A stretch of DNA of 64,000 nt from Amoebophrya sp. A120 (taxonomy: Eukaryota; Protista; Dinoflagellata): assembly GCA_905178155.1 (NCBI GenBank), contig CAJINV010000005.1, positions 7,184,989-7,248,988 on the forward strand, written 5' to 3'. The notes under the pieces are model-generated. The model saw only the letters and a program-made list of their open reading frames with translations, did not search any database and was not told where the DNA came from. The translations under genes and the position numbers were made by a program. Of this stretch, positions 1 to 61,553 are shown in pieces. The stretch's first letter is position 1. Each line of letters starts with the position of its first letter.

Positions 1-2143
1 GTATCGGATTCGAGCTGATTTAGTGGACCACCAGTTGCTGAGCTGTTGCGAAGATCATCATGTTGGACGAGTCGTGGATAGGAGTAGGACTACGACGGAG
101 GAACATCAAAGCAAGGAACAACAGCTCGCCCTTGCCGCTGCAACCTCCTCTTCCTCGTGTGAAAATGGCATGACAAGTAACGATACTAATCCTAGTGCAG
201 CTAATCGCACAACTAATTCTTCCTCTACTACCTTCCATCTCCTCGACCGTCACCCAAACAACTTCTTAACGCAAATGCGTTTCCCGAACGGGGACGAAAA
301 TTTCGTAAATCCCAAGTTCGAGTTATCGAAAAGAAAATTTCCCCCTCCCCATATCACAACGAAATATCTGATGCTGGATTTGTGTACACAAGTTGCTGGA
401 GAGCACTGTGGGCGCATATCAAGTGCGAGTAGCAGGGTTTTGGCTTTATACATAGGCACTTCTTAGCATGAAAAACGTCAGCATGACAAATAACCGCCTG
501 CACAATGCGGCGGCTGTCTGCGGAGTTGCCTTCTTGCAAGACAGACACGATTTGCGACCACAAATCAGCATAACAAATTTCCAAAAGTATACCTTTTGTT
601 CAGTATGGGGAGGGGGGATTTTTCCTTTGAATGCGAGTATTTTACCAAAGAGCTCCACGAGGAGGACAAGGCGCACCTGGTCATGCACAAAATATGGATT
701 GTAAAGATGTCTGGGTCTGGAAGATTGCAACTTGTCATGCTAAAACTGAATCATGCAGAAATCTGTGTTGCATGAGTGCCAAAAGGTGTCCACTTTCGAC
801 CAGGTTTGGAGGGAGTTTCTCATGCAGAATAGGCATGGCAGGGACCTCACAGACTCTGTCATGCTAGGTCCCGCATTCCAGACCTCACAAGTCATGGAAA
901 ACCTGCATGACAAGTTTAGACTCTTCCAGACCCAGACATTTTTGCATTTGATACAAAATGGACAACCGCGATTGGCACGGGATTAAGTCACCGCGTTGGC
1001 AAACGATTGCTATATGGAATTCGCTGTGGACGCTGGCGTTCCGGGAGGCGCAGTGCTTATGCATCGCAAAATGTGCGTAAGTACTCGTACATTCTAATTG
1101 CAATCGAGCATGACAAACCTGATTTCCTATGTAACTCACCATGACTACAAATTTAAACTGTCATGCTGACGAAATCGAAATTTGTCATGCGGTCACTTCT
1201 ACAGCCAGTACACGATGCTACTTTTGCAAAAATGCATACTGCTTCGCAAGCTGCGACAACTTTATGGGGAAAAATGTTTTCTCGCCCGCGGAAGGTGGAG
1301 GCGCGGAGGAGGGTGACCAGGACGAACTTTTTTCTCCGGTGCCAGTACGCATTGCAAATATGTCCGGGTCTAGAAGGATGCAACGTGTCTTGCTGTTGCT
1401 GGATTTGGATTCTACAAAAATCTGTATTGCATGAACAGCAACAGTAACAGAGGTGGTCCAGTTTTTGCCACGGCGAGAGGGAATTTCTCGTGCGGTATAG
1501 GCATCAGGAGGCCCTCACAAAATCTGTGATGCTAGGGCATGCATCACAAACATCAGGAGTCTAGTCATGCAAAATGTGGTGCATGACAATCCTTCCAGAC
1601 CCGGACATATTTGCACTTGATAGCCAGTTTCGGAAAACGACGAGGAACAACCTAGCAGTGGACCTAGTACGTCAACCCGTCCGCTGGATGAATTTGGCCC
1701 GGTTCTTGAGCAACAATTGCAGAGCAGCAACTGCAATAGCAATACCTCGTCGCAACAAGTCCAAGAATCTGCTGCTGGCAGTCGTTCTTCATCATCCTCA
1801 CATTTGTACGATTACGCAAAAAGCAGAACGACCAGGGACAGTGTCGTTGTCTATGACAGTGCACAACTCCCCCTCCCCCTCATTTGTATAGCATGAACGG
1901 CAACACAAGCATCAGCAAGAGTGCCTGTTTTGCATGACAAATTTACGCTGGAGTGTAGTGCTATCTGGGCTACCAGAAATTGCCATGCAAGCAGTGCCAT
2001 AAGGCAGCGACGGGATTGTTCGGGATTTTGCATGACAAAACAAAGGAGGGGGAGGCAGAGTTGTGCGCTGTCATATTGTCGTAGGTCCTGGAGGACAACT
2101 TCTGCGACCGCTCCGGGCAGCCGACCTGGAAGAATTGGATTGA
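1..2143 (+). CDS. Hypothetical protein, 3' part (5' end probably outside window), 5 introners
   Basis: Removing elements 324-633, 693-953, 1058-1238, 1346-1622, 1852-2075 plus one 5-bp DR each gives ...NPKFEYFTKELHEEDKAHLVMHKMDNRDWHGIKSPRWQTIAIWNSLWTLAFREAQC...RAADLEELD*; TGA 2141-2143. Confidence 0.8.
324..633. mobile_element. Introner family C
   Basis: TIR GAAAATTTCCCCCTCCCCATA; DR cgagt. Confidence 0.85.
693..953. mobile_element. Introner family A
   Basis: TIR ATGTCTGGGTCTGGAA; DR caaaa. Confidence 0.9.
1058..1238. mobile_element. Introner family B (diverged)
   Basis: TAT..GCAAAA TIR; DR gtgct/ctgct. Confidence 0.8.
1346..1622. mobile_element. Introner family A
   Basis: TIR; DR gccag. 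Confidence 0.9.
1852..2075. mobile_element. Introner family D
   Basis: TIR TATGACAGTGCACAACTC; DR ttgtc. Confidence 0.9.
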
Positions 2144-3593
2144 TGAGATCATAATTAGTGATTGGGAACAAGTTTGCAGCTGGTGGAAGGCGTGTTTCTG
2201 TGGTGGAAAAAGTTGGTGATGCTAGTTCGCTTTTTACACTATCCAGGAAATAGTAATGAATAAAGATAAACAAAATGTTCGAAAAAGATGCACAAGGTGG
2301 CATGGTGCTCGCTGGACCCCAGTTAAAAAATCTCGCAGAAAAATACATAGGCTTTTATATCGTGCAGCTCTCATCATTTTTAATTTTATTGCGTGAGGGG
2401 AGCTTTCGGTACAGCTACAAACAGCAGGTCATTTTATTTATTAAGCAGCAGGCCATTTAAGAGTGCCCTCTCTACAAGTCGAGATGAGGTTGTATTGCTT
2501 TATTTTCATGGCAATATTTTTAGAGCACAAGCGACGCAGTCGCAGGAGAGATGAAGACCGAACAAATTTAAAGAATACGACGACCTATTTCGAACTGTTT
2601 TATATCCAGATATACACAGCTTCTATTTTTATTTTTGCATCCGAAATTTTAGTTCGTACTTCTGACATTTAGAGAGTACGCCCACGTATATCCCACACAA
2701 TCACGATGTACAAAGCGTGGAGTTGTCAAGGCGGAAAAGGAAAAGTATCGGTCTGTATTCGCATTGTCCTATGTCATAATCTGAATGTCGATATCGGTGA
2801 CTTCTTCGCGTAATTTTCATCGGTATTATTTTATCTCGTGCTGCTCCTTCTAGGCTTCATCGGTCGTGGTGGTGGTCGTTTCAAATGTTTTTTGTCTTCG
2901 GTTTTGAGAATTGCAATCTTCGTGGTTTTCGGAAACAGAAAGAAATAGGTAACACCAAAGCGCTTTCCTGACATCGGTTTTTCGTGCAGCTCGTCCATTC
3001 AAAAATATCATTATCATCCGGAGGCGCGTATCGGTATCTGTCAGTTTGCCGTTCTATCGTACTCGTACAAGGAAGTTTATAGAAAAAGGAGATGAAGGCT
3101 TGTTTGCCACTCGGCCCTGCGCGAGGGCGACGTCGACGTCCGCTTTGCCGTTATTAACGTGATGACTTTTTCGTACACCATACAACGAACATGAAGAGGA
3201 TGTTTCCGTCATGACTTCCCCGATCATGCAGCAGTACAACTACTTCTATACTTTTATGGCGCTCGTCTGGCTTTCATATTGATACTCAACGTTTGCGGCC
3301 TTCACGAAAACGATTCCACAACATCTACTTCCGACAGGGTTTGCTAATAACTTTCTTGACTTGTCAGTCGTCCCCTCGTCTTCAAGTCCGGAAACGAAAA
3401 AGTAGACCGCCTTCTTTAATACCTGAAAACCGAAAGAAACAAAAACGAAACTTTTGACCACGACGAATTTGATTTTTTTTGAAGCATCAAACTACCGCTA
3501 CTTAAACTTAATCCTTCAGGAGCACGACATTACGACTACGAGTAAGACAAGTAAAACTCTGTGTAAGTACTTCTACAAGGTGTTGTAGTTGAC

Positions 3594-3829
3594 TATGGAG
3601 TTCTCAAATGTTACATTCTCAGCTGTTACATGAATTTGTAATGCAAGACTGGCAAAACTGAAGGGAGGAAGATTGCGCCTTTTGCATTACAAATTTGGCG
3701 CAGATTTACATGCTGTCTAGCCCTGCCGAAATTTGTGATGCGAAGCAGCTCGATCATCTGCCGGCTTAAAGTGCTTTTGCATGACAAATTCATGTAACAG
3801 TTGAGAATGTAACGTTTGAGAACGCCATA
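3594..3829. mobile_element. Introner-type MITE, singleton, apparently non-coding context
   Basis: About 50-bp TIR TATGGAGTTCTCAAATGTTACATTCTC...; DR ttgac. Confidence 0.85.
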
Positions 3830-3977
3830 TTGACACGTCTTGTTGAGTTGTCCTACCAGCAGCTCAGCATTTTCATTTCATCCAAGAAGTGCTTTCTAAT
3901 TCAAGCACTAACACTAAGCTGACAAAAATAAACTTAAACCGAAAGAACTCACCGCGAGGACATCGACCAAGGAATCG

Positions 3978-6900
3978 ATGACTCTGACTCCAAAAAATCC
4001 TGCCGCGGCACAACGTCGGCCAACAGCAGGGCGGCCGAGCACCACTTCTACGACCCGGAGCACCTCCGGATCCGGATTCCAGCTGTTCTTGCACAACAAG
4101 AACAAAAATGGCCGCCCGACCGGGAAGATGAAGATGCTCTTCGCGGCAGGTGCACTGCGCGTCGCGATGCCAGGCACTCTCCTTTGTTCCTCGCCTCTAT
4201 GGAACTGTCAGGATTGAAATTGACAAAGTTGAAAAATTTGTGATGAATAAAACCGATACCAGTTGGAAGCCCAATTTCTAAGCGGCGCATGACAAATTTA
4301 GAGGCCATCGAAATCCAGTTTGTCATGTTGTTTAGCGAAAAAAGGCATCCCTTGTCATGCTACTTTTGCAGCGGTATCCCAAGCCGGAAACAGGCTCACA
4401 ATCGGCCTTACTTGCAATCCCTGCAAGACAGTCACTTCGTGTCTTGCATTTTATGCATCACAAATTATTTCAACTTTGTCGATTTCAATCCTGACACCCC
4501 CATAGCTTCCTGGTCTCGTCCAGGCCGTGAACGTGGAGAAAATCTCCAAGACGCGGCAGGAATCACAGCCATATCCTGTGCAAAAGTATCGTACTCGCAT
4601 TGCAATCATGCATTACAAATCTTTCTCTCAAGGTAAATCAGCATTACAAATTTTATCATTACAAATTTTATCTCTCATGCTGAGGAAATTTGTAATGCAT
4701 TTATACGAGTGCGATATTTTTGCAATTCATAAGCCGCAGGGCAATGCCAATGGCAACGTCGGAAACGGCAACGCCGGCAAGACGAACGCACCGCCCGCTG
4801 CCCGGGCGGGTACTAGTTCGCAGACCACGGAGGGCTGCAGTTGCAGTGGCGGTGGCTGTATCAGACTGAAAAGAAAAGATCAAATCATCTCTCCACTACT
4901 TCTACATCACGCGGATGGACAATCAATGTGGCCCTCTACTTCAATTGTCCGAGTGATTGTGCTCTCATGCTGCCCTCTTTGCAGGAGGTGGAAAGCGAGT
5001 CGTGTGATCTGCTTCATCGTCCACGAGCCGTCGTTGGTTTGCACGGCGGTGAACAGTTTCAAAAAAAAAGGTTTTAGAAAACATTGCAACGGGCGCTCGA
5101 CGCAAAACCAAAAGACCTTATGTACCACTTCATCTTGAAAAGCGAAGAAAAATGCATGTCCACAAAAATCTCAATTGCAATGTTGAGAAAAGTTCTAATG
5201 TGCCTGATATTCATGGTTGCTCATAGAGTGCAGCTGATGTTTGCCAAAGTACTACTCTGGTGTGGTTTTTCTCCTAATTTGTCCTCATGCTGCTAGTCTC
5301 AGTTACCCCTCCAGTCTTGCTCGGGGGTACTGTTCATCTTGCATGATTCGCTGGTCCTCGTGGGGGGATGATTTGATCTCAAATTTTCTCGTTCGATATG
5401 CGGCGGATCACAGGAGAATACGGCTGAACAGCTGCGCCAGAAAAAACTGAACGCGAAAATACCAGCCGTCACTGGTCGCTTTGCTGGCGACCCGAACACA
5501 CCTCCCGTTCCAGTTGCTGCCGGCGGCCCCAAGCAACAAGACTTGCTCCCTTCAGCGGGTGTACAACGATCGTCGGGCAACCAAGGAGGAGGAGCAGGTG
5601 GAGGATCTCAAGACTTGCACTCTTCAGCGGGTGTACAACGATCGTCGGGCAACGAAGGAGGAGGAGCAGGTGGAGGAGGAGCAGGTGGAGGAGGAGATGG
5701 TGGAGGAGGAGATGGTGGAGGAGGAGATGGTGGAGGAGGAGATGGTGGAGGAGGAGATGGTGGAGGAGGAGATGGTGGAGGTGGTGGTGGAGGAGGAGGA
5801 GGAGCACCGGGTGTTTTTACACCGCGACCTGATTCGCCTGCGGGTCAAGGCAAGCTGCCGGAGCCACCTGCGCCCGTAAAAAAAAATGGTGCCGATGGTG
5901 AGGGGGATGGTGACGGTAAGGTGGACAGCGAGGACTCCAGTACTGAAGAAGAAGAGCCTCCGAAACAGGAGCATGATCATGAATCAGCAGGGCAAGAAGA
6001 AGAAGAACCTGTCCTCGGCCCTCCTTCGCAACCGTTTGGAACGGAAAACGAAGGCGTTGTTTCTCCTGGGGTCGTGCATCAGCCTCCGCAACCGGAAGCG
6101 CCCGTGGTCCACCCGGTAGCTACTGGAGATGATGCTCTACCTGTTCCTGGGATTCAGAATGAGAATCTAGGGGATGGTCTTCGTCCTCAAGCATCAAGAG
6201 GAGGTTACTACACAGAAGCCGAAAATGCGTGGAAAGAATGCAACGAGAAGCAGAAGCCCGACGAGAGTTGCGAGATCATGATCTGGATTCGGCCCGAAAA
6301 AGAAGTCGCCCAAGCGCTTGGTACGTGCATGGCAGAGGAAGAAAGAGCATGGCTCAACAAACAAAACGAGTGGATACGGTTCGGAAAGGTCCGTCTGGAT
6401 CAGTGGGACAAAGAAAGCTGGTGGAATTTCAAAAAGACCGAGGGAAAGTTTCTTCCAGCGTACGTGGAAGCGAACGCCGATGCATATGAAGCGCAGGGTT
6501 TAATTAATCGCAAATCTTCCCTCGCTGACACTGCTGACAAGCTCTCTGCGTGGTGGGAGAAAGTACTACATATGCAGTACCAGGAGGATCAGAATGTTGC
6601 GACGCCAGCGTTTCACATGCTACGTCGACGTGGAGAGGGGAAAGTAGAAGACGGGGAAAAAAATGCGGTGCTCCTCAACCAGCCCTTTTTGGAGTTTAAC
6701 AATGCGGAGGAGATAAAGTCGACGGGACGCTCGCGGAAGAAACCAAAAAAAGGTAGGAGTGTGAATCACCTCCCCACCCCTTTGAATCACCTCCCCACGC
6801 ATCACCCCCCCACCCGGATCACCTACCCACCTCCCCCGCATCACCTCGTGACGCGCCCGCATCACCACCGTAGCGGCCGGAGGTGATGCAGAAGCAGAGC

Positions 6901-7753
6901 CGGCTGCGGCCTAGGGTTTAGGGTTCGGGGTTTAGGGTCGTCGAGGCCAGCCGGCGCGACGGCGCCGTCGCGCCGGCTGGCCTCGACGCTTCTCTTTTTC
7001 TCGTGTTCCTTCCCCCTTCTCCGCCCTTGTGTGCCACCATTTTGGCTTCCATTGCTTCTTGGTCCTTTTGCTGTGCGCCCTTTGCCCCCGTCGTGTTTCC
7101 GTGCCTTGACTCCTTGCGGCATTGCCTTGCGTGCCCCGTGAGTCGCTCCATGTTCGCCACCTTAGGGCCGCCGCACCCATCTGGTGGCCGCGTGCGTAGG
7201 CTGATCTGTCGCGCAGGATGAGGACTCATGTGCGTTGTGGCAGATGCCTGGCTTCATCGCCGCGAGGTAGATGGCACAGAAGCCAAGCAGCATGCATCCA
7301 GACGTAGTCACGTTCTGCTCGACAATCACGGAGCAGTGCAACGCGGTGGGGAAGTGTTGGACGACTGGGAGGTGGGGAGGTGGGGAAGTGCCTCCCCACC
7401 TCCCCACCACTGGGGAGGTACCTCCCCACACGTGGGGAGGCACCTCCCCAGGGTGGGGAGGTGGGGAGGTGATGCGTGGGGAGGTGATTCACACCATAAC
7501 CCCAAAAACAAGCGGTGGAGAAATGCGGAAGAGGAAAAGCCTATTTAGAATCCTCACGCAGCAGAGAGAGAGGACAAGCAAAATGTTCTGGACCACGAGG
7601 GAGGGTGTGATGGAGGACGAGGAACGAATAAAACGCTTCAATACATGTATCCTGCTTGCAAGATCTAGTGCGTGCGCGCTCGTTGGCCTGCGAGTGCAAA
7701 ATTATCTAATTGGTCGCTGCCTTATTTCGTCCGTAGTAGCTGTAGCTCTTTGA
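3978..7753 (+). CDS. Gly-rich (GGGGD repeat) hypothetical protein, possibly secreted; 3-4 introners
   Basis: ATG 3978; removing 4198-4504, 4572-4731, 4859-5398 joins to ORF 5543-6886. Removing 6754-7498 plus 5 nt continues in frame to TGA 7753 (alternative stop 6886). Hydrophobic stretch MKMLFAAGALRVAMPGTLLC near the N terminus. Confidence 0.6.
4198..4504. mobile_element. Introner family F
   Basis: TIR TATGG..TGTCAGGATTGAAAT; DR gcctc/gcttc. Confidence 0.9.
4572..4731. mobile_element. Introner family B
   Basis: TIR TGCAAAAGTATCGTACTCG; DR agcca/agccg. Confidence 0.9.
4859..5398. mobile_element. Degenerate long introner
   Basis: Imperfect TIR AGATCAAATCATC; DR lost; removal restores frame. 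Confidence 0.6.
5689..5800 (+). repeat. 15-bp coding tandem repeat (GGTGGAGGAGGAGAT, GGGGD)
   Basis: Direct reading of tandem copies. Confidence 0.9.
6754..7498. mobile_element. TIR element with CACCTCCCCAC subterminal arrays
   Basis: GTGTGAATCACCTCCCCAC ... GTGGGGAGGTGATTCACAC(C)ATA; no clear DR. Confidence 0.65.
6912..6937 (+). repeat. Short interstitial telomere-like (TTTAGGG) tract
   Basis: TAGGGTTTAGGGTTCGGGGTTTAGGG. Confidence 0.55.
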
Positions 7754-7951: not shown

Positions 7952-8051
7952 NNNNNNNNNNNNNNNNNNNNNNNNNNNNNNNNNNNNNNNNNNNNNNNNN
8001 NNNNNNNNNNNNNNNNNNNNNNNNNNNNNNNNNNNNNNNNNNNNNNNNNNN
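7952..8051. other. Assembly gap (100 N)
   Basis: Run of N. Confidence 1.
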
Positions 8052-11000: not shown

Positions 11001-11227
11001 ATCAATTCGTTATATACTAGTCGCAAGCTACCCTTGACTCACTCCACACTAGAAACCAAAAGCAACACACAACAACGACCAGGCAGGCACCCCGCCGCAC
11101 CCTCACGCACTCCCCACAGCCGCACAGAAAGGCGGCGGTCCCAGTGGTGCAGGCACAGCCGGGCCTCTAATGTTCCGGCCCTCGCCTCAAGCGCCCCCGC
11201 CTTTCTGAACCTTCAGCGGAAATGCCA

Positions 11228-11545
11228 TAGCCTCTAGCGGCCTAGCCTCTAGCGGCCTAGCCTCTAGCGGCCTAGCCTCTAGCGGCCTAGCCTCTAGCGG
11301 CCTAGCCTCTAGCGGCCTAGCCCCTAGCGGCCTAGCCCCTAGCGGCCTAGCCTCTAGCGGCCTAGCCTCTAACGGCCTAGCCTCTAGCGGCCTAGCCTCT
11401 AGCGGCCTAGCCCCACCCTAGCGGCCTAGCCCCCACCCTAGCGGCCTAGCCCCTAGCGGCCTAGCCCCTAGCGGCCTAGCCCCTAGCGGCCTAGCCCCAA
11501 GCGGCCTAGCCCCTAGGGGCCTACCCTCTAGCGGCCTAACCAGAG
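11228..11545. repeat. 15-bp minisatellite (TAGCCTCTAGCGGCC)n
   Basis: About 20 tandem copies. Confidence 0.95.
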
Positions 11546-11664
11546 GCTAGGTTAGCCTCCAGAAGCCTCTAGCGGCCTGCCTAGCCACCAGCGGGCTGCC
11601 TAGCCTCCGGCGGCCTAGCCCCCAGCGGGCTGCCTTAGGCCCCAGCGGCTTAGCCCCCTGCGGC

Positions 11665-14235
11665 CCCGGAGGTCGGAGTTTCCGGGGACCGCGGGACCCG
11701 GCGGTCGGAGTTTCCGGGGAACGCAGCGCCGCGCGCGGAGGTTTCGGGGGCCGCGGGACCCGGCGGTCGCTCGGAGTTTCCGGGGGCCGCAGGGCCCGGA
11801 GGGTGGAGTTCCCGGGGAACGCGGGGCCCGGAGGTCGGAGGTTTCGGGGACCGCGGGGCCCGGAGTTCGGAGGGCCCGGGGACCGCGGGACCCGAAGGGC
11901 GGGGGTTTCGGGGACCCCGGGGCCCGAAGGTCGGAGGTTTCGGGGACCCCGCGCCCCGGAAGTCGGGGACTTCGGGGACCCCGGGACCCAAAGGTCGGGC
12001 GGAGTTTCCGGGGAACCCGGGACCCGAAGGTCGGAGGTTTCGGGGACCCGGAGGTCGGAGGTTTCGGGGACCGTGGGACCCGAAGGTCGGAGGTTTCGGG
12101 GACCCCGGGACCCGGAGGTCGGAGGCTTCGGGGAGCCTGGGGCCCGTAGGTCGGAGGTTTCGGGTACCGGGGGACCCCGAGGTCGGAGGTTTCGGGGACC
12201 ATTGGGCCCGGAGGTCGGAGGCTTCGGGGACCCCGGGACCCGGAGGTCGGAGGTTTCGGGGACCCCGGGACCCGGAGCTCGGGGGTTTCGGGGACCGCGG
12301 GACCCGGAGGTCGGAGGTTTGTTTCGGGGACCGCGGGACCAGGAGATCGGAGGGAGGTTTCGAGGACCGCGGGACCCGAAGGTCGGAGGTTTCGGGGACC
12401 GCGGGGCCCGGAGGTCGGAGGGAGGTTTCAGGGACCGCGGGACCCGGAGGTCGGAGGTTTCGGGGACCCCGGAGCCCGGGGGTCGGAGTTTCCGGGGAAC
12501 CGGGGTTCGGAGGTTTCGGGGACCGTGGGGCCCGGGGGTCCGTCGGAGGTTTCGGGGACCCCGGGACCCGGAGGTCGGACGTTTCGGGGACCGCGGGACC
12601 CGGAGGTCGGAGGTTTCGGGGACCGTGGGGCCCGGAGGTCGGAGGTTTCGAGGACCCCGGGACCCGGGGGTCGGAGGTTTCGGGGACCGCGGGGCCCAAA
12701 GGCCGGAGCGAGGTTGTGGGGAAACCGGGACCCGGAGGCTTCGGGGCCCCGGAGGTTTCGGGGACCCCGGGACCCGGAGGTCGGAGGTTTCGGAAAAGCG
12801 GGACCCGGAGGTCGGAGGTTTCGGGGACCGCGGGACCCGGAGGTCGGAGGTTTCTTTCGGGGACCGCGGGACCCGAAGGTCGGAGGTTTCGGGGACCCCG
12901 GGGCCCGGAGGTCGGAGGTTTCGGGGACCGCGGGACCCGGAGGTCGGGGGTTTCGGGGACCGCGGGACCCGGAGGTCGGAGGTTTCGGGGACCGCGGTGC
13001 CCGGAGGCCGGAGGTTTCGGGGACCGCGGGACCCGGAGGTCGGGGGTTTCGGGGACCCCGGGACCCGAAGGTCGGAGGTTTCGGGGACCGCGGGGCCCGG
13101 AGGTCGGAGGCTTGGAGGTTTCGGAGACCCCGGGACCCGGAGTTCGGAGCTTTCGGGGACCGCGGGGCCCGGAGTTCGGAGGTTTCGGGGACCGCGGGGC
13201 CCGGAGGTCGGAGGTTTCGGGGACCGCGGGGCCCGGAGGTCGGAGGTTTCGGGGACCCCGAGACCCGAAGGTCGGAGGTTTCGGGGACCCCGAGACCCGA
13301 AGGTCGGAGGTTTCGGGGACCGCGGGACCCGGAGGTCGGGGGCTTCGGGGGCCCCGGGACCCGGAGGTCGGAGCTTTCGGGGACCCGGAGTTCGGAGGTT
13401 TCGGGGACCGCGGGGCCCGGAGGTCGGAGGCTTCGGGGACCACGGGGCCCGGAGGTTTCGGGGACCCCGGGACCCGAAGATCGGGGGTTTCGGGGACCGC
13501 GGGGCCCGGAGGTCGGGGGCTTCGGGGACCCCGGGACCCGAAGGTCGGAGGTTTCGGGGACCCCGGGACCCGGAGGTCGGAGCTTTCGGGGACCCGGAGT
13601 TCGGAGGGTTCGGGGACCGCGGGGCCCGGAGTTCGGAGGTTTCGGGGACCGCGGGGCCCGCAGGTCGGACGCTTCGGGGAACCCGGGACCCGAAGGTCGG
13701 AGGTTTCGGGGACCCCGGGGCCCGGAGGTCGGAGGTTTTGGGGACCCCGGGACCCGGAGGTCGGAGGTTTCGGGGGCCGCGGGACCCGGAGGTCGGAGGT
13801 TTCGGGGGCCCCGGGACCCGGAGGTCGGAGGTTTCGGGGACCGCGGGATTCGGAGGTCGGAGGTTTCGGGGACCCCCGGACCCGGAGGTCGGAGGTTTCG
13901 GGGACCCCGGGACCCGGAGGTCGGAGTTTCCGGGGAACCCGGGACCCGAAGGTCGGAGTTTCCGGGGAACCCGGGCCCCGGAGGTCGGAGGTTTCGGGGA
14001 CCGCGGGACGTGGAGGTCGGAGGTTTCGGGGACCGCGGGACCCGGAGGCCGGAGGTTTCGGGGACCACGGGGCCCGGAGGTCGGAGGTTTCGGGGACCAC
14101 GGGGCCCGGAGGTCGGAGGTTTCGGGGACCGCGGGGCCCGGAGGTCGGAGGTTTCGGGGACCACGGGGCCCGGAGGTCGGAGGTTTCGGGGACCACGGGG
14201 CCCGGAGGTCGGAGGTTTTGGTCGGGAGGTTTCGG
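11665..14235. repeat. 32-bp GC-rich satellite (CGGAGGTCGGAGGTTTCGGGGACCGCGGGACC)n
   Basis: About 2.6 kb of tandem variants; 32-aa periodicity in the six-frame ORFs. Confidence 0.95.
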
Positions 14236-14325
14236 GAGTTGAGGCTGGAGGTCGCGGGAGTTGTTGGCTGAGGTTTCCGGAGGTGTGCGTTAAAATTTTT
14301 TGTTCTATACTTATCATTGCGCATT

Positions 14326-38055: not shown

Positions 38056-38319
38056 TATCAAATGCAAAAATGTCTGGGCCTGGAAGGATGCAAGGTCTGT
38101 CATGCACATTTTGCAATGAGTCCTGATGTCTGTGATGCATGCCCTAGCATCACAGATTTCAAAAGGGCTTTCTGATGCCTATACCGCATGAGAAATGCCC
38201 TCTCGTAATGGAAAAAACTGGACTTCTTCTGCTGTTAATGCAATACATATTTTTGTAGAATGCAGCTGCAGCATCACAAGTTCGCATCCTTCCAGACCCA
38301 GACATATTTGCATTTGATA
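38056..38319. mobile_element. Family A element
   Basis: TIR; DR ggcga/ggtga. Confidence 0.9.
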
Positions 38320-46900: not shown

Positions 46901-49900
46901 TGGTTCGAAGTGCCGCAGAAATACTTGGGCCTGCTATGAAATGCAAAAATGTCTGGGTCTGGAAGAATGGAAGGCTTGTCATGCTTGTCTGGCATGACCC
47001 ATGATGCTTGTAATCCATGACCCAGCATCACAGATTTTTGGAAAGCTTCCTGATGCCATTTCCGCATGACAAATGCCCTCCTCGCGTAGCACAAATGTGG
47101 CTCCTCTTGCTGGTCATGCAATACAGATTTTTTTAGAGTCCAGAGTTAGCATCACAAGTTGCAACTTTATTCCAGACCCAGACATTTTTACAATCCATAC
47201 CTGCTGATCGGCCGCAACGGGGACGCGATTCGGCGGTACCGCCAGTTTGCCACGGAGCGCGGCATGAACATCATCGTCGACCAACCACAGAAAATTATCA
47301 AATGCAAAAATGTCTGGGTCTGGAAGACAGTAACCTGTGATGCTAAATCTGAATCATGCTAAAATCTGTGTTGCATGAGTGCCAAAAGCTGTCCACTTTC
47401 GACCAAGTTGGGAGGGGATTTCTCATGCACGATAGGCATGACAGAGACCTGGCAGAGTTTGTCATGCTAGGTCCCGCATTCCAGACCTCATGGGTCATGG
47501 AAAATCTGCATGACAAGTTGCATCCTTCCAGACCCAGACATTTTTGCATTTGATAAAAATGGCCCTGTCCCGGTCTGCCATGCAAGTGAACGGGGGACAC
47601 CTCATACGAATTGCAAAACTATCGTACTAGTAGAAGTCGCATTACAAATTTCCTCAGCATGAGAAAAAGAATCTGTGATGCGGATGTACCCTAAGAAAAA
47701 GATCTGTCGTGCATAACTGCAATTAGTAGTACAGTAGTACGAGTACGATACTTTTGCACAGGACACCTCACGCAGGCGGACTTGGAAAGGATGGGGCCCG
47801 GAACCGTCCACATCACGGGTAACGACTATCCTGAGTAAAAACGTCCCCACACCAGAGTTGTAATGCAAATCTGCATGCTGAAAATGTTTCTCATGCGGAG
47901 ACCCATGAGAAGCAGTCTCTCGTCGTGTTGTGGGATTTGTGATGCTAGAATCAGCATGATATGCTAGATCTGTGATGCTGCAGAACAAGCTAAACAGGAT
48001 TTCACTGCGAGGCCAAACTTGTCATGCGCAGCAGCAAAAGCTGACAGATTTGTCTAGCAGATTTCCCAGCTTGACTCTGGTGTGGGGACGTAGTTTTTAC
48101 TCAGGATAACGACCTGGCCAACATCATTTCCCTCAAGGCCGACATGCAACAGAATCTGTTCAAAGCCATTTCCACCCTGGACACGCAGAAGGGAGGCGGC
48201 GGGTCTGGCGGCGGGTTTTCCTCCTTCGGCTCGTCGTTCGGCTCCAGTGGAGGACCGGGAGGCGGTGGCGGATTCCACAACGCTATGCATTGCAAATATG
48301 TCTGGGTCTGGAAGGATGCAATTGCAAACTTGTGATGCGCATTTTACAACACGTAAAAATCTCTCATGCATAGGCAGCAAAGGTTGCCCACTTTCTGTCA
48401 CAAAAATGGGGCATTCGCATTTGTCATGCAGATTCGGCATTGCAGAAGCTTCTCGAAACCTGTTATGCTAGGGCTTCCATGCTAGACCTTCTGTGTCATG
48501 CAAAAGCAGCATAACTCTTCCAGACCCACACATATTTGCACTGGATAAACGCCTCGACCACCAACCCGCTGCATTCCGGGGGTTTTGCGATCGGATCCGG
48601 TCCCAGTTTCCTGAATATTGAGAGGAAAAATCCCCCCTCCCCATATTGAAAACGCATTCGTCTGAAAATTTGTGATGCAGATTTGAGGTCACAAATCCTG
48701 TCTCTCCTGCGGGAAGGCAAAGCCAGAGAGCCCGCCGCATTATGCCGGCGGTTTGTGATGCTGTTGGGCTTACAGCGCCGACATCTGTCATGCTAGTCCC
48801 CTACGTCAAAACCTCTCGGCCCAGGCTTGGCATCTGCCTGCAGTTTTCTCCAGCAAGACAGACCCGATTTGTGTACGCAAATCCAGCGCCAGAAACTTAG
48901 TTTCGATATGGGGAGGGGGGATTTTTCCCTTTGATATTGAACGGGCCATCGTTTCGAGGCCCCCGCGGGGGAGGACGCGATCCGCACTTGCGAGACCTAT
49001 CGAACGCAAATATCGATCTGGGTCTGGAAACTTGTGATGCTGAATGGCGAAGCATGAGGGTGCCACAAGTGACGGCTCAGCATGACAAGTTTCTGAGAGG
49101 CAAGGCATTGCCTACTCAGCATGACGAGCTGCGTTTTTGCATGACAGAAAGCTGGGGCTTATTTTATTGGGTAACTTGCATTACAGACTTGAGAGTCATG
49201 CTAGCGGAGCATGAAAAACTTGCATTCTGCTTCCAGACCACCCAGACAGATTTGCAGTTGATAAGACCAGCACCGCGACCACTTTCCGTTTGGTCCGTCT
49301 AGTGGCAGTATGCACTGCAAAAGTATCGTACTCGTATAAATGCATTACAAATTTCCTCAGCGTGAGAAATAAGATTTGTAATGCGGATTTACCTCAAGAA
49401 AAAAATTTGTAAATGCATAACTGCAATACAACGAGTACGATACTTTTGCACAGGATAGGCAGCTCCTTCGGCGGTGGGCCCGATTTTGGCGACCCGAGAG
49501 CTGGGCCTCCGATTGGCTTGGTATCCACAGAAAAAATAACCCCATCCCCATCCATTTTTTGCATGACAAACACAGAACTTGATACGTGTTCTGCATTACA
49601 ATTTGGATGTGGGTGGGTGTTTTTTCCACGAGGATACTTGGACCCGAGAAACTACGCCGTTGCCCAGTCCCAGCTCTTCAGTAAAAAACGCAGTTGCATT
49701 TATTTTGAATTTTATCCAACCTATTTTTTTCGATGGAATACAACAACCGTAGTTGTGCACCATATGGTGGCAAGCTGACCCAGTCGTGCATCATGTTTTG
49801 CGGTGCTTGTAGCTGAGAACGTAAAGTATAATGCGGATTAACAGACGATCATGCATCTTATAATTTCCACCACGACCACCACGCTCTACAACTGCATAAT

Positions 49901-51173
49901 TTTGATTGCAGAGATTGATCTCATCCACATGGTACTTCCTATTGGCGCGGCTCTCTGGTAAGAACTCTATCACAGCATGTCATCTGACACACACCCCTTC
50001 TACATCAACGACCACAGGTGGACGCAGTCGCACGGCTACGGGCACGACAGACGGTATGGGAGTGTCAGGATCGAAAGTGTCAAAGTTGAAAGAATCTGTA
50101 ATGCAAAAAACCGATACCAGCTGGAGCCCAGTTTGCAAGCGGCGCATGACGAATTTTGGCAGCATGGAAATCCAATCTGTCGCGCTGTTTGAGCAGAGAC
50201 GATTGCTTTTGTCGTGCTATTTTAGCAGCTCTATGTATAATCTCACACCCCAAACAGGCTTGTAATCGGCCTCAGTTGCCTGCTCTGCAAGACAAGCGCT
50301 TTGCGTCTAGCATTTTATGCATCACAAACTAGTTCAACTTTGACGATTTCAATCCTGACACTCCCATAGACGGCGACCGGCGGGGAAATCCGGGCGGGGT
50401 CGGTGCGGGAGGAGCTCCACCGATGCGGCAGCAGAACGGTACCGGTGGTAGTCACCACAACGTCAACGTGGGAGGTGTAGCTCCTTCTCGAGGTGGCATG
50501 CTGAACAACCCCAATCCCATGGGAGCCTCCGCTCCAGGCGTGCCGAGCCGGTCGGGACCTTACGGAACCAACAGTATGGGGAAAGCCGCTGCGCTATGGA
50601 TTGCAAATATGTCTGGGTCTGGAAGAGTGGAACTTGTGATGCTACCTCTGGACTCTACATAAAATCTGTATTGCATGAACAGCAAAAGAGGTGTGTTTTG
50701 TACTACGCGGAGAGGACATTTCTAATGCGGCTTGAGCATCAGAGAGCACTCGCAAAATCTCTGATGCTAGGGCATGCATCACAGACCTCACGGGTCATGC
50801 AAAATCTGCATGACAAACTCCTGCATTCTTCCAGACCCAGACATTTTTGCAATGCATATGCGCCCGGTGTCGGTGGTGGCCCGCCGAGTCACGGAGGTGG
50901 ATCTTCCCTGTTTGCCGGTCCTAGTATGAAACTGCACAACTCCCCCTCGTCCCCCTCATTTGTCATGCAAAGTGCCTAGTTTACGCCTTGGCTCTTGGCA
51001 CTGTTTGCATGACAAGTTCTCGCAGCCCCAATAGCACTACACTCCTGTCTAAATTTGTCATGCAGGAAAACCTGTATTCTTGCTGACGCTTGTATTGCTG
51101 TTCATGCAATACAAGTGAGGGGGAGGGGGAGTTGTGCACTTTCATACCTAGCTCTTATCCCGCAGAAACATGA
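40952..51173 (+). CDS. KH-domain RNA-binding protein with G/P/Q/H-rich and RD/RE-rich low-complexity regions
   Basis: Removing 27 introners and GT-AG introns 44381-44572 and 49681-49975 gives one ORF; KH motif FEVPQKYLGLLIGRNGDAIRRY...TVHITGNDLANIISLKADM (GxxG loop); TGA 51171-51173; start uncertain. Confidence 0.85.
40996..41247. mobile_element. Introner family A
   Basis: TIR; DR cacga. Confidence 0.92.
41361..41505. mobile_element. Introner family B
   Basis: TIR; DR ggtag. Confidence 0.92.
41543..41809. mobile_element. Introner family A
   Basis: TIR; DR acagc. Confidence 0.9.
41880..42103. mobile_element. Introner family G
   Basis: TIR; DR tcatg. Confidence 0.9.
42136..42349. mobile_element. 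Introner family I
   Basis: TIR; DR gcatg. Confidence 0.9.
42402..42711. mobile_element. Introner family C
   Basis: TIR; DR tcggg. Confidence 0.92.
42758..42915. mobile_element. Introner family B
   Basis: TIR; DR tccac. Confidence 0.92.
43076..43224. mobile_element. Introner family B
   Basis: TIR; DR taact/tagct. Confidence 0.9.
43712..44295. mobile_element. Introner family A with nested insert
   Basis: DR ccctt; insert 43782-44092 flanked by catgactcctga. Confidence 0.9.
43782..44092. mobile_element. Secondary insertion inside an introner
   Basis: 12-bp duplication; end GGGACGCCCTGCCCTTAG shared with 52033-52050. Confidence 0.75.
44381..44572 (+). other. Canonical GT-AG intron
   Basis: G|GTAAGT...TACTTCAG|TG keeps frame. 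Confidence 0.75.
44717..44918. mobile_element. Introner family H
   Basis: TIR TATCCACAGTAA; DR acctc offset by 3 nt. Confidence 0.8.
45060..45314. mobile_element. Introner family A
   Basis: TIR; DR cgcga. Confidence 0.9.
45574..45733. mobile_element. Introner family B
   Basis: TIR; DR ggacc. Confidence 0.9.
45804..46113. mobile_element. Introner family C
   Basis: TIR; DR tcagc. Confidence 0.92.
46307..46568. mobile_element. Introner family A
   Basis: TIR; DR cgagg. Confidence 0.92.
46593..46847. mobile_element. Introner, singleton
   Basis: TIR TGCTCA.G.GTTACAATCTCAA.CGTTGCAA; DR aaccg. Confidence 0.9.
46935..47199. mobile_element. Introner family A
   Basis: DR cctgc; splits KH LGL|LIGRNG. 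Confidence 0.92.
47296..47555. mobile_element. Introner family A
   Basis: TIR; DR aaaat. Confidence 0.92.
47605..47765. mobile_element. Introner family B
   Basis: TIR; DR cctca. Confidence 0.88.
47827..48108. mobile_element. Introner family E
   Basis: TIR; DR acgac. Confidence 0.92.
48284..48547. mobile_element. Introner family A
   Basis: TIR; DR aacgc. Confidence 0.92.
48616..48936. mobile_element. Introner family C
   Basis: TIR; DR ctgaa/ttgaa. Confidence 0.92.
48998..49263. mobile_element. Introner family A
   Basis: TIR; DR agacc. Confidence 0.9.
49309..49457. mobile_element. Introner family B
   Basis: TIR; DR ggcag. Confidence 0.92.
49522..49636. mobile_element. Introner family H-like (shortest, 115 bp)
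   Basis: TIR; DR cttgg. Confidence 0.88.
49681..49975 (+). other. Canonical GT-AG intron
   Basis: A|GTAAAA...TCACAG|CA keeps frame to the downstream exons. Confidence 0.6.
50055..50368. mobile_element. Introner family F
   Basis: TIR; DR gacgg. Confidence 0.92.
50595..50858. mobile_element. Introner family A
   Basis: TIR; DR tgcgc. Confidence 0.92.
50925..51146. mobile_element. Introner family D
   Basis: TIR; DR cctag. Confidence 0.92.
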
Positions 51174-51977: not shown

Positions 51978-52148
51978 TATCCACAGGAACATTCTCATCC
52001 CCTTCAGTAGTTTTTGCAATGACACACACACAGGGACGCCCTGCCCTTAGTTTACCAACATGACAAATGCAGGCTTTGCTTCTTGTGCCCGGTGTTTTGC
52101 ATGAAAAGAAATTGCAATTGGATGGGGATGAGGATTTTATTGTGGATA
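51978..52148. mobile_element. Family H-like element with a short nested insert
   Basis: TIR TATCCACA..CTCATCCCC; DR actgg/cctgg. Confidence 0.8.
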
Positions 52149-53735
52149 CCTGGGACCACTCGTGCAGCAGAACTAGTAGGGTTGCTCAAGAGCAGAGTCT
52201 ATGTCCATTCTGGAGGCACGTGCGATAAGTATGCTCTCGCATTGCAAGAACTTCTACATCGACCGTTTTTGAAGCTATTTAGAAAACTTCACTTTATATT
52301 TTGCGTTGCAGTGGGGCATGCATTTATAGGACTTTCCATATTAGCCTTCCGCTAAAAACGTCACCCGTTGGCCGAGGTCGTTCGCGCAGGCACACCGACG
52401 TCGTTCGCGCAGGCACAGCGACAACCCTATCGGGAACAGCGCCGCAAGAAAAACAGCCGGCGCAGCGTCAGCGTCGTCACCACCACCACCTCTTCCTCCT
52501 CCACCACTTCTTTTTCTTCGTCCAATCCGGCGACCGACGGTTGCGACACGGATGACGCACGGTTTGGTGCCCCCCGCGGCGTTGCGACTTGCTCACAACC
52601 GTCGGTCGCCGGATTGGAGGAAGAAAAAGAGGTGGCGGTGACCTCAGTGTCGTCACAACCAACGCCGATGCCGCCGTTGCAACCGTCGCCGGGGCGGGGG
52701 CGTTTCCGGATTGATTGGAGGAAAAGATGATGGCGGTGATGATGAACAGTACTAGTGATGGGCAATTGCTGGCGCTGTACTGGCTGTTTTCTTGCAGCGC
52801 CGCTCCCGACACGATTGTGACTGTGCCTGCGCGATCGACGTCGGCCAACGGGTGCCGTTTTGAGCGGAAAGGGAAAGCGAATATTATAGGAAGTCCCACA
52901 AATACATATCAAAGAACAAACTTCTTGCACTACATCAATCTAGAACTGCCTATGGCATTGCGCCAGTAACAAATTCGCCAAGGGCCGCCCTTTCAAGAAA
53001 TTATTGCATTTCAATTGCAACGCGCGAATGCAAGCCTTCTGAGCAGTATAGCTCGCGCAAGAATTAGTGTGGCTCTGCCCTTGAATACATGCGGAATCTC
53101 GTGCAAGAGCTCCTCTGCCGTCAGAGTGGGATCGATTGAGCTGTTGCAGCTTGTGCAGTTACGTAAAGCAACTTTTGGGGCACCGGACCTAAGGACCACC
53201 CGGCCGGGTGGTCCGTAAGTCCGGTGCGGACCTAAGGATTAGGTTTGTGACCCTCCTCTAAGTATGCTCTCGCTTTGCAAGAACTTCCACACCAACAGTT
53301 TGAGTTTGTAAGAAAATGAGTCCCAGTCTGAGCGTGCATAACGACCAACCGGCGCTGCACCAGGAGGTTATCCAATCTGAAATGAAAATCGTGTTGTAGA
53401 CGATATTTCTACATAGCAAGTGGCCTTTATCAATCATCGAAATGGAAATTGTGATGCATACACAAGAACACTCGATCACCGGTGAGCTGTCCCCTGATCT
53501 TGACCATTTTTCTAGTCCTACTGTTTTGGAAAAGGTTTTTTATAAAGATGGACCTGGCAACACCAACATCATGAAGATGCGAGAACAGGACGTGGAGATG
53601 AACGACAACTACCAGAAACAATGTGGTCGAAAAGAAGACGCAGTATCAAGATGGTAAGTAGGATGACTACACACACAGCTTCCTTATTTCAGTTTTATGA
53701 CGGTGCACAACTACTCCTTCTCCCCCCCCCATGTG
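52120..53735. repeat. Segmental duplication copy 1 (copy 2 at 61845-62387), with a 1-kb insert
   Basis: Colinear high similarity outside 52259-53258. Confidence 0.85.
52325..52895. repeat. Long imperfect foldback palindrome
   Basis: e.g. TCCAATCCGGCGACCGACGGTTG / CAACCGTCGGTCGCCGGATTGGA; CCCGTTGGCCGA / TCGGCCAACGGG. Confidence 0.8.
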
Positions 53736-54706
53736 GATTCGGATCAAGGCTGCAGGACTTAAAGTATGTAGATGTAACAAAAAGAAGATAAAGAGGATGG
53801 ACAAATATTAAGGTGGTTCTACTGACTCTGACAATGATGCATCAGGTGGCTATACTAAGTAGCTTCATGATCATCTGCACGGAGATCATGGACGCGGAGA
53901 TATTGAACAAGGTGCGCGCACTGAGATTTGTCGTCGTCGTTGTGCCGAGCTTTCTTGTCCTGCAAACAATGTCAATGCTACAAACTGAATAGCAAGCACT
54001 CTATTGCTTTTGCATCACAAATCAGTACTGAAAAATGAAGGGGACCACGAGGAGGGGGAGTAGTTGTGCAACGTGATAAGGCCGATAACCACGGATTTGC
54101 TTTTCCGCAACGACACCGAGGTACGAACAGTGAAAAGCCGCGAGTCCTCTCGAAGCAGCAGCTCGAGTAGTTTGATTTATTTGTCATGCCAAAATGCAAT
54201 AGAAATTGAAAGAGATTGACAACTGCAATTTTGCCTACACCGAGCACGCAAGTGAGGAAATTTTCCGTCGCTATCGCAATTGCTTGTAGTAGTTTTTGCA
54301 TGACACAACAAGGAGCAATAACTTCGAACACTCGCTTCATTTGGCCACAATTATACGGGAAGATATCCGATGCAAATTTTATGCCTGGTTGGTGAGAGAA
54401 CGTGTTGGCTCCTGCTCTGTGAATTATCATTCATCGATCTACTAGACTTATCCTTGTTGGCGTTCAAGATAGGAAGAATTTCGTGAACTAGAGTTCTAAG
54501 AAGTTCAAGTTGCTGCAAATTACACTATGGAACAATGACAACAAGAAAATATTGTCCATTCTACTCTACATCTACGAACGTACAACAACACTCGTCTCTG
54601 CGCCGACCACGTGTACAAATTTGCGATGCATAGCTCATGAAGATGTCGGAAACGCCATAGCGCGGCTGCTGAACACCAAGGAAAACGTATCACGCAGAAT
54701 CAACGA

Positions 54707-55014
54707 TATGGATGTGTCAGAATTGAAATCGACAAAGTTGAAATAATTTGTGATGCATAAAATCTATACCAGTTGGACCCACAGTTTCCAATCGGCGCAT
54801 GACAAATTTTCCTGGCCTCTGAAGCAAGTCTGTCATGCTGTTTAGGGCAAGGTGGCTGCTCCCTGTCATGCTAGTCAGCAGCCCAATTCTTGACCCTTGC
54901 CAGCACTAGAATCTGCCTCCCTTGCGCCTTCAGCAATAGAGTCAGTCTTTGTGTCGCATTTTATGCATGAAAAATCATTTCAACTTTGTCGATTTCAACT
55001 CTGACACCTCCATA
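54707..55014. mobile_element. Family F element
   Basis: TIR; DR aacga. Confidence 0.9.
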
Positions 55015-55378: not shown

Positions 55379-55640
55379 TATCAAATGCAAAAATGTCTGG
55401 GTCTGGAAGGATGCGACTTGTGATGCTGAATTTGGATTCTACAAAAATCTGTATTGCATGAACAGCAAAAGAGGTCCTGTTTTTGCCACGGCGAGGGGGC
55501 ATTTCTCATGCGGTATAGGCATCAGGAAGCCCTCACAAAATCTGTGATGCTGGAGCATGCGTCACAGACTTCAGGAGTCATGCAAAGTGGCCATGACAAA
55601 CCTCGCATCCTTCCAGACCCAGACACTTTTACATTTGATA
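55379..55640. mobile_element. Family A element, apparently non-coding context
   Basis: TIR; DR tgtgt. Confidence 0.9.
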
Positions 55641-59340: not shown

Positions 59341-60860
59341 TTAGCAATTCTCATGCAGCAAATCCTTGCACAGCTCTTTCGTCAATACGGTGCCGCTATC
59401 AAATGTAAAAGTGTCCGGGTCTGGAAGAATGCAACTTGTCATGCTAAATCTGAAGCATGCAAAAATCTGTGTTGCATGATTACCAAAAGTCGTCCAGTTT
59501 TGACCAAGTCGGGAGGGAGTTTCTCATGCAGGATAGGCACGAGAGAGATCGCGCAGAATCTGTTATGCTAGGTCCTGCATTCCAGACCTCGGGGGTCATG
59601 GAAAAGCTGCATGACAAGTCGCGCACTCTTCCAGACCCAGACCCAGACCCAGACACTACTGCGCGAGCACCCACAGGCTCCCAGGTGCCTAGCGCTTTGG
59701 CCAGCGTTGCACCTCGATAGAGCCTGCGGGACCCCGTGGGCAGAAGTTCATCGCACCCAATTTGCATGTTGCGCAAGTGATAGTATAAGTAGTAGTACTC
59801 AGTACCACCGGTGGACGCCATAGCATGCTTTTAGTCTCTCTCTACATATTATATCCACGTAGTTCTCTTCTCTTTTCTTTCTTCAAAATGTTAAAGTCGT
59901 TCTCTTCCCTGTGCTGTACCATGGTCTTGCTTCCAGACAAAACACCAGACATTTTTGCATTTGATAGCCCCTGCTGTTTCTGTCCTGAAGTCTGTCGTTA
60001 GTTCCGAAAGAAGAAGTTGCTCCTCCTGCGCCCCCACTTGAAGATGTCAGCGGCCCTTTGTTCTGCTGCAAAATCTCGGCTTCTATTCTCCGGAACAGCG
60101 GCAGGATATTCGCGTTCAGCTCGGCAATCGCGGAAGAATCCAAATTGTCCCGCATGGAGTAAAACAGCCGCTTTTTCAAATACACAATCTATGGAAGCGT
60201 CAGGATTGAAATCGTCACAGTTGAAATAGCTTGCGATGCATAAAATGCAACCCACAAAAAGCCTGTCTTGCAGAGTAGCCAAGGAAGGCAGATTGTAAGC
60301 CTGTTGAGGGGTAGAAATAGAGCTGCTAAAGTAGCAAGACAGAAGGCGTCTTCCTTACCCAAACACCATTACAAATTGGGTTTCGGCTCTTCCCAAATTT
60401 GTCATGCGCCAGTTGAAAACTAGGCACCAACTGGTATCCGTTTTATGCATCAGAAATTATTTCAACTTTGTCGATTTCGATCCTGACACTACCATACAAT
60501 CTCCGCTTGGCGTAACGTCGCGGAGGAAGACACAACTGCTGCTTGGTTGTTTATTGCGACAGAAGATGCAGTAGTGGTCCCGTCTTGATTGGCTCCAGTT
60601 GTTGTTGTGCTGCTGGAGCTGGAAGTCGAAGAAGTTCTGGCTTCTTTAGTCGTGTCAGCAGAACCCGCTGTTCCTGCAGTAGAAGACCCACTCCCTTGCT
60701 CACCGGACTGTTTGTCTTTGACCGCTCCTCCCGTATTCCCACCGCTTGATCCCGAAGCCACCACATCCGCCACCTTGATTTCGTCCAGAAACTGTAGCTG
60801 CCACCCCAGATACCGCAACACGAACATCTCGTAGTTCTGCAACAAGCAAATCGGGTTCCG
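59341..60860 (-). CDS. Hypothetical protein, 3' part, with a cyclin-box-like motif; 5' end unresolved
   Basis: Minus-strand frame restored across 60190-60496 and 59397-59966: PICLLQNYEMFVLRYLGWQLQF...QAEIVYLKKRLFYSMRDNL...RGTVLTKELCKDLLHENC*; ExxVLxxLxWxL resembles the end of a cyclin N-domain (inference). Confidence 0.6.
59397..59966. mobile_element. Expanded introner family A
   Basis: DR gccgc/gcccc; about 300-bp insert in the right TIR after (CCAGAC)3. Confidence 0.82.
60190..60496. mobile_element. Introner family F
   Basis: DR caatc; in a minus-strand gene. Confidence 0.92.
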
Positions 60861-61175
60861 TATTGTGAGGAAAAATCTTCCCTCCCCATATCGAACAGGA
60901 AATTTGTAATGCTGATTTGTGGCCACAAATCCGCTGTGTCTTGCGTACAAGGCAAACGGCACCCATGTGGCGTATTGTACAGCGAGTCTGTCATGCGCTT
61001 TCGCCTATATCAGACGTGTTTCTCATGCTAAGCTGCTAGCCGGATGCGTACCCAAATGGGCTTAGTATATCTTGGCAATCTCTTGCTGCAATACACAGCT
61101 CATTTGTGTACAGAAATCCAGCAACACAAATTGTCTATATCGAATGTGGACTGGGGACTTTTTTTTTAACCAATA
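60861..61175. mobile_element. Family C element
   Basis: TIR; poor DR. Confidence 0.75.
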
Positions 61176-61227
61176 TCTCCAACCGTCGATGAGCAGCGTG
61201 ATGAACATGTTGGCCGCAGGTGGAACA

Positions 61228-61553
61228 TATTGTGAGGAAAAATCCCCCCTCCCCATATCGAAAGCGAAATTTGTGATGCTGTATTTGAGTACACAAATCG
61301 CATTTGTCTTGCTGGAGAGGACTGCAGACCCATATCTACCCTGAGTAGAGAGGCTTTGACTTAGGCGCTTAGCATGAGAAGCGTCCGTGATGTTGGCTTA
61401 ACAGCATGACAAACTGCCTCCATAATGGGACGGAAGCTGCTGCCCTTGTCTTCTTGCAACACAGACGTGATTTGTGACCTCAAATCAGCAACACAAATCT
61501 GCGAAAGCCTACCTCTTCAATTATATGGGGAGGGGGTATTTTTCCTTGCGATA
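61228..61553. mobile_element. Family C element
   Basis: TIR; DR gaaca. Confidence 0.88.

Follow-up and report, generated by a model that had tools for sequence, protein, structure and literature searches.

We describe here a short sequence motif that recurs in the introner elements of the marine parasite Amoebophrya sp. A120, as seen in a 64,000-nucleotide stretch of contig CAJINV010000005.1 (assembly GCA_905178155.1, positions 7,184,989 to 7,248,988, forward strand; the window) and in a larger sample of loci. The elements are the known introners of this organism, with TAT...ATA ends and a 5-bp target-site duplication (TSD), but neither the motif nor its spacing was met in the portions of the literature available to us, and what is said below of cited papers refers to those portions. 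Its distribution and its pattern of conservation suggest that the motif is probably a double-stranded DNA site for one mobilisation protein shared by all of the TAT...ATA families of A120. The finding of one conserved, phased word in 15 of 15 sampled families argues for a single system with one factor behind the ~30,000 non-canonical introners of A120.

The motif and the elements that carry it

A first-pass annotation of the window had proposed that otherwise unrelated element families share the word TTGT[C/G/A]ATGC, and this proved correct. The window contains 167 exact copies of TTGTNATGC on both strands, against a mean of 2.35 and a maximum of 5 in 100 dinucleotide shuffles, and the motif is present in all 15 families sampled. 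Within the window, 135 copies lie in 63 called elements, seven in remnants detected by BLAST and 25 elsewhere (46.5 kb), and by inspection about 11 of these 25 fall in degenerate elements.

Elements were called with a finder that demands TAT/ATA at one end and a TSD match of at least 4/5; in the window this finder, stricter than a scan with free TSD length, returns 63 elements with terminal inverted repeats (TIRs), totalling 16.2 kb, of which one call (6781–7498) is probably false. For the larger sample, 141 metagenome loci were fetched with the family-A end pattern and contain the same families; with five duplicate loci dropped and two trimmed, the sample amounts to 734 kb including the window (~0.6% of the genome). 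It holds 531 elements, 441 with a perfect TSD, and the finder makes no calls in 200 kb of Markov sequence. The elements group into 15 families, with 27 singletons or pairs left over; the family letters are our own and not those of the first-pass annotation, and family A (214 elements) is over-represented by sampling design. A free-length scan for inverted ends gives a TSD of 5 bp in 43 of 82 candidates and of 3, 4 or 6–8 bp in none, and empty paralogous sites retain a single copy of the 5-bp TSD (locus L006, 6529–6790, 11706–11967 and 13271–13586; locus L046, 5237–5504). End logos of the 531 elements show an inverted repeat of TAT, about seven variable nucleotides and at least three As, and the elements have the features of miniature inverted-repeat transposable elements, being short, non-coding and multicopy with TIRs and TSDs. 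Nesting is also seen, with an I-family element inside an H element (locus L013, 1641–1751).

Motif density over the 531 elements of the 15 families is 8.4 per kb within elements and 0.20 per kb outside, a ~40-fold difference, so that the objection of no enrichment over surrounding DNA, raised with the original proposal, fails. The top shared 7–9-mers are all pieces of the motif and occur in at least half of the members in 14–15 of the 15 families. The true site is broader than the word first reported, namely AAA[T/C][T/C]TGT[C/G/A][A/T]TGC, and its variable base, expected to be C, G or A, is indeed C 580 times, G 286 times, A 222 times and T only 10 times. Elements carry a mean of 4.1 strong sites, and eight of the 531 have none. 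The proposed position 30–50 nt inside the ends is right in part: 614 of 1098 exact matches in all elements start there (uniform expectation 209), as do 70 of 135 in the window, while copies are spread through the whole element and so about half are not subterminal. Polarity differs between families as had been noted, being inward in A, C, H, J, N, K, E, D and I, and outward in B and L. The extent of 693–61553 originally given does contain copies, although others lie beyond it at 168, 481, 568, 61756, 62135 and 62455. The notion that the TIR is in general the first motif copy was rejected, since only 14% of ends score so; those that do are some alleles of A, B, L and O.

The motif was not found in the text, as distinct from the figures, of the portions we had of the literature on Amoebophrya introners and non-canonical introns, dinoflagellate introners, or TGTCATGC together with transposon TIRs, nor in the available part of a review (PMC11282704). 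It has no matches in the supplement text of Farhat et al., which does not cover figures such as Fig. S25.

Spacing and helical phasing

Sites in the same orientation are spaced 31–33 bp apart, or three helical turns, in 13 of 15 families, whereas the best window in 5000 randomisations reached nine. Between the members of such pairs (n=28) sits a degenerate inverted copy, placed 16 bp after the first member (score -2.75 versus -10.8 +/- 1.0), and the pair together with this inverted middle site forms a module of ~41 bp, in the arrangement > < >, that is frequent in the elements. The centre of the first inward site lies 35–40, 44–48 or 56–57 bp from the element end and is in helical phase with it (Rayleigh p ~1e-4 at 10.4 bp, 12 families).

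Conservation and selection

The proposal that the motif is maintained by selection, beyond its neighbouring bases, was borne out. Divergence of the core from the subfamily consensus is 0.055, against 0.20 for the other interior positions (478 copies, 18 subfamilies), and 0.056 against 0.172 at matched trinucleotides, leaving ~3–4-fold excess conservation after base and trinucleotide controls. The conservation is limited sharply to the seven core positions, with the N position and the neighbours at background. Most family pairs have no alignable sequence once the motifs are held fixed, and the claim that the families share little else is accurate for these; it needs qualifying for weak links among D, J and K, C and O, and A and O (D-K z 7–12, D-J 5–9, C-O 6–9 and A-O 3–6, against 15–59 within families). 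The motif thus survives comparison with plain shared ancestry, in which the families align over their whole length with no excess conservation.

On trees of 17 subfamilies, the ratio of core to background substitution rises from 0.17 on internal branches to 0.45 on terminal ones, an odds ratio of 2.66; four simulations of uniform constraint gave odds ratios of 1.1–1.4, and relaxed terminal constraint gave 2.6–3.6. Terminal decay is alike in copies called as coding (0.037) and in other copies (0.035). Regression of motif divergence on total divergence has a slope of 0.16; since subfamily structure accounts for most of the distance to a consensus, we draw no argument for host selection from it. 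Only two same-site insertion pairs are present, both of near-identical copies and with no power for post-insertion decay.

The TIRs are themselves structured. Positions 4–10 of A and B elements show a few haplotypes that recur in every A subfamily and at either end; the two ends of an element (e.g. 693–702 and 944–953) are independent (0.672 versus 0.671), and the A-family haplotypes fit the interior tree weakly (0.83–1.04 versus 0.52–0.73 for held-out interior), a pattern that suggests swapping of element tips among copies. Positions 15–30 contain a family-specific short direct repeat that is conserved like the motif (GTCTGG twice in A, GTTACA-type in G, J, K and P, CGTA in B, and paired C-tracts in C, D, E, I and N) and is a candidate for a second, family-specific contact.

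A model for mobilisation

The mobilisation protein that we propose could be part of a transposase, namely its DNA-binding domain, or a distinct partner protein akin to TnpA of CACTA elements or ORF1 of Harbinger. It would bind motif copies on one face of the helix and help to assemble the element ends for cutting and insertion. Copies losing sites would leave fewer descendants, copies with intact sites would give rise to the next wave, and the word would for this reason stay intact across diverged families. A second contact of a more variable kind may recognise the family-specific repeats at TIR positions 15–30. Splicing would require the element ends but not the complete set of motif copies. 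As a lead only, the TA..TA termini and the 5-bp TSD suggest an integrase-like DDE enzyme. The motif offers bait for protein pull-down, a signature for an autonomous partner and for decayed copies, and a means of separating mobilisation signals from splicing signals.

Several observations weigh against this model. The phasing test involves few, possibly related families with essentially two peaks, and outward sites are not phased (p=0.27). Suppression of length changes is not seen in the 31–33-bp spacers (0.48 versus 0.52 per 100 bp elsewhere), the middle inverted site is barely conserved within families, and the module may be partly an ancestral relic. Sites have a mild strand bias (618 versus 519, p=0.004), which by family is 32:14 in A1 and 12:31 in B1 and B2 together. 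The terminal-branch ratio falls far short of the value near 1.0 that simulation gives for copies decaying neutrally once inserted, and either unsampled transposition history or host selection can explain it; as ~530 of ~30,000 copies were sampled, the tree tips include unseen transposition, so that residual host selection may or may not contribute. No transposase or autonomous element was found in the 734 kb, and Farhat et al. (PMC7789003), in the portion available, report no transposase in A120 and treat the families as unrelated.

Removal of the elements from transcripts

Direct evidence of splicing is confined to 17.6–33.5 kb of the window, and the contigs of run X1 used here are taken as RNA by guess. 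An exon of the gene at 17643–20132 is 100% identical to a 430-amino-acid GPN-loop GTPase of A120, and the annotated A120 GPN protein aligns as six exons with five elements between them. X1 contigs precisely skip an element plus 5 bp at 19650, 28261 and 29212. Across 25828–27773 they lack 1462 nt, exactly the predicted sum for six consecutive elements, three of them without the exact motif, and the frame stays open for 419 codons across the joined sequence. Old elements without the exact motif are still absent from RNA, and each keeps one site scoring at least 11.9. Excising the element plus 5 bp opens the frame at 301 of 530 sites, compared with 216–222 for out-of-frame excisions. RNA reads on these genes number 48, all partial, in X9 and none in X10.

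The gene and elements in the window are as follows; strand is not assigned for elements.

17643–20132, + strand: GPN-loop GTPase gene (Pfam ATP_bind_1), split by five elements
324–633: family C, 5-bp TSD
693–953: family A, inward motif at 732 and 905
1064–1238: degenerate B-like, ends approximate; motifs at 1108 and 1182
1346–1622: family A, TAC start
1852–2075: family D
3594–3829: family J, four alternating motifs ~47 bp apart
4198–4504: family H
4572–4731: family B, outward polarity
17709–17858: family L, GPN intron 1
17917–18096: family B, GPN intron 2
18348–18597: family A, GPN intron 3, between Pfam positions 80 and 81
19013–19336: family C, GPN intron 4
19650–19917: family A, GPN intron 5; X1 contig skips element plus 5 bp
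21923–22193: family A
22269–22470: degenerate B-like
22545–22760: degenerate G
23035–23307: family G
23387–23746: E-like, 5/5 TSD
23806–23963: family B, pair 23873/23904 (31 bp)
24171–24496: family C, no exact motif
24561–24828: family A
25062–25218: family B
25830–26069: family D, no exact motif, removed from RNA
26132–26374: old element, no exact or strong motif (best score 11.9), TSD 3/5, removed from RNA
26418–26639: family D
26698–26987: family E, five same-strand motifs; pairs 26729/26760 (31 bp) and 26808/26841 (33 bp)
27153–27324: old element, one strong site only, removed from RNA
27509–27773: unclassified element
28261–28404: family B; X1 contig skips 149 nt, element plus 5
29212–29409: old B-like; X1 contig skips 203 nt, element plus 5
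31186–31437: family A
31490–31698: family G
32318–32467: family B
32535–32817: family E
32872–33022: family B
33078–33338: family A
36421–36599: old TAT..ATA element, TSD lost
36798–37059: family A
37549–37728: family B
38056–38319: family A
39341–40256: 916-bp element, A-like ends, 5/5 TSD, internal ~50-bp direct repeat
40996–41247: family A
41361–41505: family B
41543–41809: family A
41880–42103: family G
42136–42349: family G
42402–42711: family C
42758–42915: family B
43076–43224: family B
43712–44295: A element with ~320-bp internal insertion
44717–44918: old L-like
45060–45314: family A
45574–45733: family B
45804–46113: family C, pair 45846/45878 (32 bp)
46307–46568: family A
46593–46847: family K
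46935–47199: family A
47296–47555: family A, perfect 30-bp TIR
47605–47765: family B
47827–48108: family E
48284–48547: family A
48616–48936: family C
48998–49263: family A
49309–49457: family B
49522–49636: family I, 115 bp, two TIRs around a single 32-bp motif pair
50055–50368: family H
50595–50858: family A
50925–51146: family D
51978–52148: unclassified, no exact motif
53696–54078: old D-like
54707–55014: family H
55379–55640: family A
59397–59966: rearranged A
60190–60496: family H
60861–61175: degenerate C
61228–61553: family C

Two further observations concern transcripts. A 4530-nt X1 contig matches 21146–30147 of the window (+ strand), a long coiled-coil low-complexity gene with about 17 elements and probable GT-AG introns. 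At 33260–33300, 41 RNA reads of X9, a 2026 run, match the family-A end only and then run into other sequence; they represent an expressed or retained A-like element from another locus or strain.

DNA site or excision signal

An alternative is that the motif is a cis-code for excision of U1-independent introns, selected by the host in every copy; either both of its polarities are read on the RNA, or a factor reads it on the DNA and passes the nascent transcript to the splicing machinery. Constraint does persist on terminal branches (0.45), a strong site is missing in only eight of 531 elements, every old spliced element examined retains at least one site scoring at least 11.9, the strand bias noted above exists albeit mildly, and U1 small nuclear RNA was not detected in this organism according to the available text of PMC7789003. 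However, both polarities work: of 530 elements, 279 could be assigned a coding strand (the call matches the locus majority in 223 of 237), every family with more than two strand calls occurs in both orientations to transcription, and single-polarity elements in coding sequence divide 21 to 16. Nor is there an RNA-pairing signature, as among sense-strand TIR mismatches G-U does not outnumber A-C beyond chance (256 versus 235, p=0.37), sense RNA has no folding advantage over antisense (n=270, p=0.64), and left-right covariation expected of an RNA stem is not seen at TIR positions 4–10. Equal terminal decay in coding-called and other copies, and the removal of six consecutive elements of which three lack the exact motif, with predicted and observed lengths identical, are also hard to reconcile with an excision code, and A25 and many non-repeated A120 introns, in the descriptions accessible to us, are likewise non-canonical with other ends. 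We consider an excision code unlikely, on account of the use of both orientations, the lack of a G-U excess, the equal coding and non-coding decay and the continued removal of motif-poor copies. The first-pass annotation had suggested a binding site for one common factor, of either a transposase or a splicing type; a transposase-type DNA site, its binding being putative, fits these results, and the splicing-factor option is disfavoured.

Other alternatives

The motif could instead be the site of a host protein, a chromatin or transcription factor with no relation to the transposase, which the elements exploit, for example through accessibility or DNA bending, to be copied at a higher rate. One word is common to all families while TIR positions 15–30 differ by family, no transposase is reported in A120 in the sources as available, and the selection pattern would be the same as for a mobilisation protein. 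We nonetheless think a host factor quite improbable, as the word is rare outside elements (0.20 per kb, much of it in decayed elements), which is unexpected for ordinary host targets, and the constant phase between motif and element end suits a complex that assembles the ends. As possible leads, the motif resembles the Sox-Oct composite site and HMG-box TTTGT sites, and ApiAP2 TGCATGCA is a looser match. A more ambitious proposal, and in our view an improbable one as a whole, is that one host-encoded or domesticated protein would read the phased > < > module on DNA, mobilise the elements and also mark each copy, already in the DNA, for removal from transcripts, acting on ~30,000 elements of unrelated families in a genome that has no recognised transposase, with removal that is exact, orientation-independent and U1-independent. 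Finally, a single ancestral ~41-bp module may have passed among families by recombination and gene conversion, leaving the motif as a relic without function; this we regard as very improbable. In its favour, the families share a module in which the middle site has decayed and the flank is A-rich, there is weak cross-family similarity, TIR tips look reshuffled among copies (so that exchange occurs), and insertions or deletions are not suppressed in the spacers. Against it, conservation is confined to the seven core positions with neighbours and N at background, and conversion would homogenise entire tracts and not a 9-bp comb.

Comparison with known systems

The introners of A120 have been described (PMC7789003, PMC12130899) as having TAT-start inverted repeats, seven variable bases, an A run and short direct repeats, with non-canonical removal and many families of ~110–320 bp. 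Organism and elements are the same here, whereas the internal shared motif, the spacing rule and the selection analysis do not appear in the portions of those papers available to us. Their boundaries are described with 3–5-nt direct repeats, and the elements here have both the boundary direct repeat and the non-GT-AG removal.

Mobilisation through the motif would work in the manner of hAT, CACTA TnpA or two-protein Harbinger systems, with membership in none of these because termini or TSD fail. There are hAT subgroups with a 5-bp TSD, and short repeats of mixed orientation inside the ends are common to hAT elements and to those described here. In Hermes (hAT, PMC10368747), subterminal repeats bound by a BED domain are of mixed orientation, with asymmetric ends and quasi-palindromic pairs, and one possibly lies within the TIR; it has a 4-bp site and an 8-bp target site, compared with a site of 9–13 bp and a 5-bp TSD here, and it differs from the present elements in their 16/32-bp spacing and in a motif common to 15 families with different TIR interiors. 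DNA binding by a protein separate from the catalytic transposase is described for CACTA TnpA (PMC2613891) and PIF/Harbinger ORF1 (PMC2836001). The reiterated direct and inverted motifs are reminiscent of CACTA and TnpA, but CACTA termini and a 3-bp TSD are both absent here, and CACTA motifs, in the text available, diverge between subfamilies whereas here the motif is the constant part. IS3EU/GingerRoot elements (PMC10045372, PMC6839031) have TA..TA termini and no target sequence preference, as here, although their TSD is usually 6 bp and not 5 bp; the TG..CA termini of Ginger1 and Ginger2 (PMC6839031) do not match TAT..ATA. Gozashti et al. (2025; PMC12130899) place A120 family 38 in TIR DNA/Ginger, with '5-bp TSD, TA/TA Termini' and integrase-related homology, in the 50 of 58 A120 rows of supplementary file 8 available to us, and this family is the best lead for the enzyme.

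Within our sample, four long candidates with TIR and TSD (834–1104 bp) contain no transposase, their 11 open reading frames (ORFs) giving one sub-threshold Pfam match, and a regular-expression screen of ORFs of at least 60 amino acids found no integrase or hAT pattern. The 916-bp element at 39341–40256 contains several ORFs with no Pfam match and no transposase domain, and is a possible relative of family 38 (808 bp). The family-A TIR has no matches in viral contigs.

Other repeats in the window

Repeats of other kinds are also present. GC-rich tandem arrays at 11200–14240, with a 14-bp unit and then a ~30-bp unit over 2.6 kb, are free of the motif. The inverted-repeat region at 6781–7498, rich in GGGGAGGT/ACCTCCCC units and with short TAGGG-type repeats near 6913–6935, is 84% like 15330–16042 of locus L051 and is a different repeat family without the motif. 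An assembly gap of 100 N lies at 7952–8051, and local duplications of 83–84% identity relate 53259–53729 to 61949–62383 and 14568–14898 to 16289–16627.

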